From Bacteroidaceae bacterium (lineage in GTDB: Bacteria; Pseudomonadota; Alphaproteobacteria; RF32; CAG-239), in NCBI GenBank assembly GCA_963646605.1, contig CAVIWQ010000002.1, forward strand, positions 1 to 51,480: a DNA stretch of 51,480 nt, read 5' to 3'. Below are positions 48,936-50,390 of the stretch, piece after piece; position 1 is the stretch's first letter, and every line of letters begins with the position of its first letter. The position numbers and the translations under genes are program-made. The notes under the pieces are model-generated. The model had not been told where the DNA came from and ran no database searches. It was given only the letters and a program-made list of their open reading frames with translations.

Positions 48936-50390
48936 TTAAGACATATTACGTAAAATATTAATCAATTTATCCAATTTTCCGGGGGCAATCGGTTTATCCG
49001 CGTCGGGCAGGGCGCGGGCAAAAAGTTTAATTTCTTTTGGCGTGCCGCGGTCGATACGGGTTACATTTACATTTAAGGAATCCCATATTTCAAACATATC
49101 TTCCGCATTTATGATGTTGCCGATTTGAACGATGACAAAAGGCTCAATATTAAAGTTCATATCGGCCGCTTCCAATCTATCCGCAATTAAACGCCTTGCA
49201 ATATCAATTTTGCGTACCGGTGAAATTCGGTGTGAACTTTCTGAAAACCATAAAGGTTCTTCATCATTAAAACGTTCTTCATCAGCCAACCAATCTCCGG
49301 GTTCGCGGTCAAGCATACACAGACAAATGCGGTTTGCCGATACACCGATATAATCAATAACCGTATTTTTAATGGTTATGCGGTTAATAATTTCATATCC
49401 TTTTTGCTTGATTATGTCGGCGCAAGAGCCGCTAGGCTGGCGCTGAATGGGGCGTTCTTTATTAAAATCGTCTTTAATGCGGCGTTCAAAGTCGCGCGGC
49501 TGACGGTCTTCTCTGTTTTGACGATCGCTGCGTTCAGCTGTTTCTTTTCTATCAAAGTCGCGTGATGCCGAGCGTGTATCTCTGCCGGAGTTTTTATCTT
49601 CGCGGCGGTCATAATTTCTGTTATCTCTGTCCCGATTGCGGTCACGATCTCTGTCGCGGTCGCTGTTTCGGTCATTATTTCTGTCTCGGCTGCGGGCGGA
49701 TCGGTCTTGACGGTCGTTGTCATAATCATCGCGTTCTCGGCGCTGAGGTCTATCTTGTGCCTTGGGTGCCGGAGAAACATCAAACGAGTCGATATCGAAA
49801 TCTAAATCATCAATATTATCGTCAAACTTGAACAGTGCGTGGTCAAATTTGCTTGGAGCCGGTGAAGCCGAAACCGGTGAAGGAAGCGCTTGCTGCATAG
49901 GAACAATCGGATTTACGGCCGGAATTGTTATTGGAGCCGAAGGCATACTTGAAATTTGATCGGTATATGCCGGAGTGCTGCGCACGGCCCGCGGTCTGAT
50001 TTCTTTATAAGAACGTTTACGGCGTATAGGCGTAACACCGGTAGTTGTAGTGATGATTTTGACCGGTTTATAAAAGAAGTTTTTGAACAATCTCCAAGGC
50101 AGAGTTAGAACAAACCATACAACCTTTCCCCAAGAAATCATGCTCAAAGCAATCCAGCCAGTGAACCACAGCGGTATAAACGAGATGATGATTAAAACAA
50201 AAGCCCATTCTTTCGGTTCGGAAATTACCCACGAATTTGACCATAAATCCCAAGCAATTTGCCAGTGATCAAGGTTCAAGATATCAAAATGCCAGTTGCG
50301 GAGCATAATAACCCTTATGCTTTCCATAAAGAAAACACTCCATATCAAACCAACCAGTATAATTCGGGTTAATATCAGTAAGGGTTTCAA
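48936..50390 (-). CDS. uncharacterised membrane protein: 3-TM N-domain + Pro/Ser and Arg/Asp-rich disordered linker + C-terminal globular domain
   Basis: ATG ORF of 484 aa, ending 17 nt upstream of the virD4 start. It has three hydrophobic helices in aa 1..~105, low complexity in aa ~110..315, and an ordered-looking aa ~320..484. It matches no family I can name with confidence. Confidence 0.65.
   Translation of the reverse strand: MKPLLILTRIILVGLIWSVFFMESIRVIMLRNWHFDILNLDHWQIAWDLWSNSWVISEPKEWAFVLIIISFIPLWFTGWIALSMISWGKVVWFVLTLPWRLFKNFFYKPVKIITTTTGVTPIRRKRSYKEIRPRAVRSTPAYTDQISSMPSAPITIPAVNPIVPMQQALPSPVSASPAPSKFDHALFKFDDNIDDLDFDIDSFDVSPAPKAQDRPQRRERDDYDNDRQDRSARSRDRNNDRNSDRDRDRDRNRDRDNRNYDRREDKNSGRDTRSASRDFDRKETAERSDRQNREDRQPRDFERRIKDDFNKERPIQRQPSGSCADIIKQKGYEIINRITIKNTVIDYIGVSANRICLCMLDREPGDWLADEERFNDEEPLWFSESSHRISPVRKIDIARRLIADRLEAADMNFNIEPFVIVQIGNIINAEDMFEIWDSLNVNVTRIDRGTPKEIKLFARALPDADKPIAPGKLDKLINILRNMS
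49445..49780 (-). repeat. coding low-complexity tract (Arg/Asp/Asn/Ser mixed-charge region)
   Basis: Encodes ...RRERDDYDNDRQDRSARSRDRNNDRNSDRDRDRDRNRDRDNRNYDRREDKNSGRDTRSASRDFDRKETAERSDRQNREDRQPRDFERR... At DNA level it is made of imperfect short GTC/GCG/CGG-type iterations. Confidence 0.7.

Follow-up and report, generated by a model that had tools for sequence, protein, structure and literature searches.

A predicted membrane-tethered, NERD-like protein encoded next to a chromosomal VirD4-type coupling ATPase in RF32-type Alphaproteobacteria

Coupling proteins are seen as gating the substrates of conjugative and effector type IV secretion systems (T4SSs), and they normally travel with virB or tra genes on mobile elements; structures of type IV coupling proteins (T4CPs) have been solved. 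In the type IVB system, the coupling protein DotL has DotM (IcmP) as its partner. NERD domains are often joined to transmembrane (TM) segments or to NTPases. Here we describe a locus in a 51,480-nt stretch of an RF32-type alphaproteobacterial genome (contig CAVIWQ010000002.1, positions 1 to 51,480, hereafter the window) in which the gene for a VirD4-type ATPase belongs to the chromosomal core, is conserved like sigma-32 and is almost always preceded by a gene that we call X. The product of X combines a predicted membrane domain and a long disordered tether with a C-terminal domain that is a divergent relative of NERD, lying outside the Pfam cutoff. Our preferred reading, to which we give slightly less than an even chance, is that X is a dedicated membrane-anchored partner of this ATPase, serving as its cargo receptor or regulator. 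The architecture of X and its near-obligate pairing with a VirD4-type ATPase are absent from Pfam, NCBIfam, PADLOC, the PDB and the literature searched; full-text searches for pairings of NERD-like and coupling proteins, for a T4SS in RF32-type bacteria and for an orphan VirD4 in Alphaproteobacteria found no paper.

X and the adjoining coupling ATPase

X is a genuine gene. An earlier note on this DNA, made from the letters alone, had marked the same open reading frame (ORF) with the same extent and a length of 484 aa, leaving unmentioned that it is read from the minus strand (Table 1). An AGGAG sequence is located at 50397-50401, 6 nt before the TTG start codon of X, overlapping the stop codon of the preceding gene, and the N-terminus MKPLLIL is retained in most of the 24 full-length homologues that we aligned (alignment A1, the source of all statements on invariant columns). 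A search of 5.8 billion proteins returned more than 1000 homologues with a best E of 0, indicating that X is a real gene and no chance ORF. None of these homologues carries a functional name, and the few that are named belong to uncultured Alphaproteobacteria.

The gene located 17 nt downstream of X encodes a T4CP matching the Pfam families T4SS-DNA_transf (E 1e-57), TraG-D_C (4e-23) and TrwB_AAD_bind (6e-18), and these domains together with two N-terminal TM segments and Walker A and B motifs identify it as VirD4-type. A gap of 9 nt separates X from the gene upstream, p173, which encodes a shorter paralogue. The order p173 - X - T4CP on one strand was found in 82 of 82 closely related loci, p173 being present in every one of them, and the linkage of X to the coupling protein is very strong. 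Exploring six contigs of more distant lineages, in which the C-terminal domain was matched at E 1e-20 to 1e-49, we found X directly upstream of a T4CP in five, with T4CPs 47-63% identical to that of the window. The earlier note had set X in the context of a T4SS coupling protein; the coupling protein and its adjacency stood, whereas a link to an actual secretion system was not borne out, no virB, dot/icm or relaxase genes being detected within ±10 kb at the eight loci with called genes (L001, L002, L083, L084, L088, L089, L091 and L092). Promoter- and terminator-like sites showed no enrichment.

The median identity of the T4CP across 69 loci was 75.8%, compared with 71.8% for RpoH and 65.2% for RluD, and it rises and falls with theirs (Spearman rho 0.70). 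This co-divergence with RpoH and RluD indicates that the X-T4CP pair is vertically inherited and strongly selected. The closest plasmid T4CPs, which share 35% identity, are encoded in virB4...virB8-9-10-11-virD4 operons of Sphingosinicella and Erythrobacter megaplasmids. The long DotL-type C-terminal extension is absent from the T4CP of the window, and a phmmer search with this T4CP against PDB chains gave 0 matches at E up to 1e-3. The T4CP described here is a distinct, strongly constrained branch of the coupling proteins.

Scanning one genome per GTDB species, we found relatives of the C-terminal domain of X in 371 species-level genomes. The 80 best matches were all from gut or rumen metagenome-assembled genomes, labelled uncultured Azospirillum/Alphaproteobacteria, CAG:495 or Candidatus Scatocola. 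PLSDB plasmids and IMG/VR viral contigs contained no relatives of the domain. Ten large ORFs checked elsewhere in the window were all housekeeping, and the core genes there include those encoding ComEC, RF3, trigger factor, a Mur ligase, FtsZ/FtsA and an RNase E/G-family protein. Given the lack of plasmid and viral copies and the housekeeping context, we rejected a mobile-element origin.

Membrane domain, tether and NERD-like head

Reading the translation, the earlier note had divided X into three TM helices, a Pro/Ser/Ala-rich stretch with an acidic patch, an Arg/Asp mixed-charge tract and an ordered domain of ~165 aa. Alignment A1 and composition counts bear out this four-part layout, with corrections. 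The hydropathy threshold was passed solely by aa ~4-29 and ~62-85, and distant homologues have two such segments as well. AlphaFold2 (AF2) placed helices at residues 2-32, 40-51, 59-84 and 87-107; the last of these is poorly hydrophobic across homologues, where it averages 0.72 on the Kyte-Doolittle scale and bears 3-6 charged residues, and its counterpart in a distant homologue reads KKIDIALIIGKIITSPLKMNK. The TM helices are therefore probably two rather than three. Averaged over the 24 homologues, the loop between the TM helices carries 2.8 K+R versus 5.2 D+E, and the 50 residues past TM2 carry 12.5 K+R versus 1.4 D+E. According to the positive-inside rule, this charge bias would place both termini of X in the cytoplasm, with the linker and the C-terminal domain facing the same side, and the charge counts of distant homologues agree with this topology. 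From hydropathy and charge bias we thus infer that X has two TM helices and that its tether and C-terminal domain are cytoplasmic. In conservation the membrane domain roughly equals the C-terminal head, harboring ~45 invariant columns that include E23 and R26 within TM1 and the Trp-rich loop. So many invariant columns suggest that this domain may make specific intramembrane contacts rather than act as a mere anchor.

The disordered tether is ~210 residues long. Its Pro/Ser/Thr/Ala-rich part (aa 111-180) is composed of 17% P, 13% S, 11% T and 10% A, and the basic motif SYKEIRPR lies at the start of the disordered region. The acidic/aromatic patch FDHALFKFDDNIDDLDFDIDSFDV carries nine positions invariant in the 24 homologues (F182, H184, L186, F187, F189, D190, F198, D201 and F203), and it may resemble the C-terminal tail of SSB (DFDDDIPF). 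A similar patch was detected in 22 of 117 representatives at 50% identity, indicating that it is clade-restricted; we dropped the patch as a universal companion of the C-terminal domain, given this count and a control set contaminated by homologues. The Arg/Asp tract, which is predicted with pLDDT below 50, varies in length and composition within A1. A tandem-repeat check revealed no DNA tandem repeat beneath it, and slippage repeats were rejected as its origin. The local G+C content is 0.453 in 48001..50000 as compared with ~0.40 elsewhere, a rise that coincides with the Arg/Asp-rich linker and would more likely stem from codon composition than from foreign DNA.

An AF2 model of the C-terminal domain, built with an 18-sequence alignment, reached a pLDDT of 83 and a pTM of 0.81, consistent with the ordered domain described earlier. 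The elements follow each other in the order alpha, three beta, long loop, alpha, beta, alpha, beta and two helices. The first six correspond to the alpha-beta-beta-beta-alpha-beta core of PD-(D/E)xK proteins (H6-12, E16-23, E26-33, E37-43, H74-91 and E97-105). The top Pfam match of the domain is NERD (PF08378; E 0.075, profile positions 17-109 of 111), and its 14.0 bits stay below the gathering cutoff of 22.1 bits, so that by this cutoff it is a relative of the family and not a member. NERD was also matched by 15 of 37 diverse relatives, with a best E of 5.3e-7 and in one register wherever coordinates were shown, and it was the top match in eight of ten distant relatives (14.9-21.9 bits), seven of which span the same profile region as the domain of X. 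A Foldseek search against the PDB returned nothing below 1e-3, the best E being 0.015; the best of these weak matches include the Nt.BspD6I nickase, the R2 restriction-like endonuclease and Card1. The best match in BFVD had an E of 5e-4, and the proteins matched there include 'nuclease-related domain', 'endonuclease-like', DUF2726 and PD-(D/E)XK proteins. Overall, restriction-endonuclease-like, NERD and DUF2726 proteins are over-represented among the weak Foldseek matches, and those to nucleases have TM-scores of 0.3-0.47. Sequence searches of the PDB found no relatives for the C-terminal domain profiles A2 and A3, the full-length X profile or the T4CP, and two attempts to reach labelled NERD proteins by sequence via a divergent member of the domain found none. 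The C-terminal domain of X thus adds a new branch, still without a name, to a fold family already described.

The catalytic signature of this fold, D...(D/E)xK, is altered in X, which carries D346...D361-R362-E363 with a Glu at the canonical Lys position. Among 133 domain stretches from the sequences in hand, on which all conservation percentages are based, D346 is retained in 62%, D361 in 74% and E363 in 45%. By comparison, W367, A369, E371, P379, W381, F382, S383, S390 and P391 of the loop between beta-3 and alpha-2 are retained in 83-98%; the acidic signature of this loop in the family is GDWLADEE.F..E.PLWFSE.SH..SP. A second motif is conserved at N428 (133/133), W436 (127/133) and M432 (109/133). 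With the loop and IINAxDM...W kept in 83-100% and the acidic positions in 45-74%, the family signature consists of these motifs and not of a catalytic triad. Neither motif is known to belong to the NERD signature. The earlier proposal of a NERD or PD-(D/E)xK-like nuclease domain thus held for the fold and the distant family; the replacement of Lys by Glu together with the partial retention of the acidic positions leaves 'nuclease' unproven.

Searching 1.84 billion cluster representatives exhaustively with HMMER yielded 342 relatives of the C-terminal domain, most of which share the membrane-linker-domain layout. In other relatives the domain with the WLADEE loop is N-terminal to AAA+/AAA_lid_6 ATPases (P0234, P0245, P0235, P0238 and P0269) or lies between TPR repeats and Roc-COR-TIR (P0178 and P0190), and in both kinds of protein Pfam assigns it no name. 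Fusion to AAA+ and Roc-COR-TIR NTPases fits a module that serves NTPase machines.

Neighbouring genes and sister lineages

The coordinates of X, its parts and its neighbours are compiled in Table 1. The upstream paralogue p173 is 31% identical to the membrane domain of X over 85 aa (BLASTP, E 9e-16). At the distant loci L084, L087 and L092 the upstream gene is a full-length tandem paralogue of X with its own NERD-like domain, and seen beside these p173 looks like a truncated copy of X. The next gene in the co-oriented string of this clade, p749, encodes a Gln/Glu-rich, highly charged protein with no family match and 23-41% identity between species where it is detectable; it contains a 72-bp tandem repeat at 51344..51480 with 98% matches. 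Further upstream, the 82 loci usually carry genes for a 305-aa protein and a DUF6476 protein, followed by rluD and rpoH. Just past the end of the window (L001, 5914-7126), a DUF6476 membrane protein of 95 aa and the acidic 305-aa protein head the gene string. The DUF6476 and 305-aa genes are present in 68 and 73 of the 82 RF32-type loci, respectively, and were not detected beside X-T4CP at the distant loci L083 and L084; the 305-aa protein has no family match.

On the other side, an ArsR/HTH_5-type regulator gene (46460..46738, plus strand) converges on the T4CP gene of the window with a 4-bp overlap at the 3' end, and it is kept in the closest ~24 loci only. In 29 RF32-type loci, as well as in L083, L084, L089, L091 and L092, two extra genes are found past the T4CP. 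The first encodes a protein of 203-433 aa whose C-terminal ~115 aa are 31-35% identical to aa 275-387 of E. coli YhhZ (BLASTP E 5e-13 to 2e-8); this HNH part is the conserved one (42-53% identity from one distant lineage to another) and follows a variable, disordered N-terminus. Pfam gave no match for the YhhZ-like protein of the sister loci, and its link to HNH rests on the pairwise similarity to YhhZ. The second gene encodes a protein of ~145 aa that scores above the cutoff of the NCBIfam YrhA family (NF038335). The arrangement suggests one of two things: the ATPase may handle the HNH/YrhA pair as effector and immunity protein, or the pair may add a second nuclease-type component to a single machine.

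Elsewhere in the same core region of the window, a gene for a ComEC-type competence channel is located at 7239..9128 on the plus strand (Pfam Competence, E 9e-65), giving the organism at least one further membrane protein that translocates DNA.

Table 1. Positions of X, its predicted parts and associated genes (window coordinates unless a locus is named)
Feature	Residues or length	Position	Strand	Basis or remark
X	484 aa, TTG start	48936..50390	minus	ORF listing, AGGAG, >1000 homologues
Membrane domain of X (predicted)	aa 1-110	50061..50390	minus	hydropathy, charge counts, AF2 helices, conservation
TM1 of X (predicted)	aa ~4-29	50304-50381	minus	hydropathy threshold
Trp-rich acidic loop of X	aa 30-61		minus	between TM1 and TM2
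TM2 of X (predicted)	aa ~62-85	50136-50207	minus	hydropathy threshold
Amphipathic helix of X (predicted)	aa 87-107		minus	AF2
Basic motif SYKEIRPR	aa 127-134	49989..50012	minus	S127-P133 invariant in A1
Acidic/aromatic patch	aa 182-205	49776..49847	minus	invariant F/H/L/D in 24 homologues
Arg/Asp mixed-charge spacer	aa 206-320	49431..49775	minus	R 28%, D 21%; pLDDT <50
C-terminal globular domain	aa 321-484	48939..49430	minus	AF2, Pfam NERD matches, Foldseek
NERD profile match	aa 328-420	49131-49409	minus	Pfam
Hallmark loop GDWLADEERFNDEEPLWFSESSHRISP	aa 365-391	49218..49298	minus	133 representatives; between beta-3 and alpha-2
Second hallmark motif IINAEDMFEIW	aa 426-436	49083..49115	minus	133 representatives
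p173, upstream paralogue	173 aa	50400..50921	minus	two-TM membrane domain only, without linker or NERD-like domain
p749, 3' part of gene	~749 aa	50924..51480	minus	L001 gene list, translation; Q/E-rich, runs off the window
VirD4-type coupling ATPase (T4CP)	727 aa	46735..48918	minus	Pfam, motifs, TM segments; adjoins X in 82/82 loci
Walker A of T4CP	APPGTGKT	48397-48420	minus	motif search
Walker B of T4CP	MFVLDE	47302-47319	minus	motif search
HNH/YrhA pair, L083		13397-15138		
HNH/YrhA pair, L084		13631-15107		
HNH/YrhA pair, L089		13483-14545		
HNH/YrhA pair, L091		9557-11026		
HNH/YrhA pair, L092		9456-10982		

Candidate roles of X and comparison with known systems

The main reason for favouring a receptor or regulator is that the domain is repeatedly partnered with NTPases, by fusion or by adjacency. 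In the mechanism that we propose, the membrane domain would dock X and p173 at the ATPase hexamer, alongside its two TM helices, and the flexible tether would let the NERD-like head sweep the cytoplasm beneath the membrane. The head, being without the canonical Lys, would most likely act as a receptor or regulator rather than as a nuclease, either capturing cargo for the ATPase or gating it. Possible cargoes are nucleic acid and proteins, for instance the YhhZ-like HNH protein of the sister lineages, and X would then fill the role that DotM has for DotL by means of an unrelated fold. Architecture, fold class, conservation pattern and synteny were observed directly; both the interaction of X with the T4CP and its receptor role are inferred, and several observations weigh against them. 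Adjacency is the sole link between the two proteins, and the distant locus L087 carries two X paralogues and no adjoining T4CP. No cargo was identified in the window, from which the HNH/YrhA pair is absent. Channel genes of a T4SS were looked for only within the ±10 kb of the eight loci, and none is there. The hallmark loop is the least confident part of the AF2 model (pLDDT 52-57), and assigning it a functional role would be a guess. Lastly, none of the 24 sequences of the RF32-like clade (A1) deviates at D346, D361 or E363, making a BamHI-style D...D-x-E metal site, and hence nuclease activity, possible in the C-terminal domain.

This last point leads to a different account, in which X is an active membrane-tethered nuclease that uses a Lys-less, BamHI-like D...D-x-E site to cut or nick DNA translocated by the ATPase, standing in for a relaxase or else processing or degrading the DNA. 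We consider it unlikely, though deserving attention: the fold is of the NERD-like PD-(D/E)xK type, D361 and D346 are retained in most of the 133 representatives in addition to being invariant in the close homologues, FtsK/HerA-class ATPases often pair with nucleases, and the sister lineages add a second protein of nuclease type, the HNH protein. Yet the site lacks the canonical Lys, fewer than half of the representatives have a Glu at position 363, several T4CP-linked homologues replace D346 or E363 (IAYLA...VDAED, VNYVA...LDGEK), the best-conserved residues lie outside the catalytic positions, and the nuclease matches of Foldseek are weak. The fusions to AAA+ and TPR-Roc-COR-TIR, architectures typical of conflict systems, could also point to an anti-phage or anti-plasmid defence pair made of a nuclease-fold sensor or effector and an NTPase, as NERD nuclease domains do occur in defence proteins. 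Defence islands are patchy and mobile, however, whereas this pair is syntenic among housekeeping genes in all 82 loci, co-diverges with RpoH and RluD, and the domain was not found on plasmids or viral contigs; moreover, PADLOC models matched neither X and the T4CP nor p173, p305, p749 and the HNH/YrhA-like proteins, and we hold a defence function to be improbable.

Two further readings take X for the counterpart of a described protein. The earlier note had offered a TolA/TonB-style tether spanning the envelope, with a periplasmic spacer and head, and the succession of anchor, spacer and head, including a Pro-rich segment, does resemble such proteins. We rejected this tether, to which we leave only a very slight chance, on the predicted topology and on the lack of a family or fold match: there are only two hydrophobic segments, the third helix being too polar and too charged; the excess of basic residues past TM2 and the net acidic inter-TM loop predict a cytoplasmic C-terminal domain; neither Pfam nor Foldseek gave a TolA or TonB match; and NERD-like folds are cytoplasmic and nucleic-acid-related. 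Least probable of all is that X is a diverged homologue of DotM, a relation that the earlier note had listed for checking. X occupies the same place directly upstream of the ATPase and has N-terminal TM helices and a predicted cytoplasmic C-terminal domain, but the A1 profile, searched against the PDB with E up to 10, retrieved no chain of DotM, the Foldseek top 50 in the PDB were without DotM, the T4CP lacks the DotL-type extension and is closest to VirD4 proteins of virB operons, and no other dot/icm gene is nearby. The remaining probability falls to functions outside these.

Beyond the receptor or regulator reading itself, X, p173 and the VirD4-like ATPase might form a self-contained, vertically inherited inner-membrane machine without a canonical T4SS, combining an FtsK/HerA-class motor with a tethered nuclease-fold receptor, joined in sister lineages by the HNH and YrhA-like proteins, and serving gut Alphaproteobacteria in a core task, for example exporting DNA or toxins or processing DNA at the membrane. 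This broader proposal is doubtful in our judgment. If true, it would mean a new use of coupling proteins and a new functional class of NERD-like domains defined by the WLADEE loop; a pair working without a T4SS would likewise extend the known functions of coupling proteins. If X is a cargo receptor, it would provide the first functional context for a widespread unnamed NERD-like subfamily. The host organisms are abundant and uncultured, and the conserved X-T4CP machine offers a concrete target for heterologous study.

Among the known systems, NERD proteins share with the head of X the alpha-beta-beta-beta-alpha-beta core, a profile match that spans nearly the whole model in a consistent register, and the recognisable pattern 'hhDhhh...hhhhh(D/E)x.xG.W...(S/N)P'. 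The head of X differs from them by its score below the Pfam threshold, by the change of the Lys of (D/E)xK to Glu, by the expansion of the beta-3/alpha-2 loop into the near-invariant acidic WLADEE..PLWFSE.SH..SP, by the second motif IINAxDM...W and by a helical C-terminal extension of ~60 aa. The YhhZ/YrhA likeness concerns the module of the sister lineages and not X: there, the C-terminus is YhhZ-like and the next gene belongs to the YrhA family, whereas variable disordered sequence stands in place of the YhhZ N-terminal part and the HNH part is not polymorphic. The ATPase next to X has the three domains, the two TM segments and the Walker motifs of the VirD4/TraG proteins of P-type T4SSs; unlike them, it is chromosomal, flanked by housekeeping genes and X, conserved like RpoH and without virB genes within 10 kb. 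It is also VirD4-like rather than DotL-like, and the locus thereby differs, as in its lack of other dot/icm genes, from the Dot/Icm complex (DotL-DotM-DotN-IcmSW). With DotM itself X shares, by analogy only, the position directly upstream of a coupling ATPase, the membrane anchor, the cytoplasmic domain and, if our proposal holds, the reception of cargo for the T4CP. X has no sequence or fold similarity to DotM, bearing instead a tether and a nuclease-type fold, and as a cargo receptor it would represent a second, structurally unrelated solution to the role of DotM.

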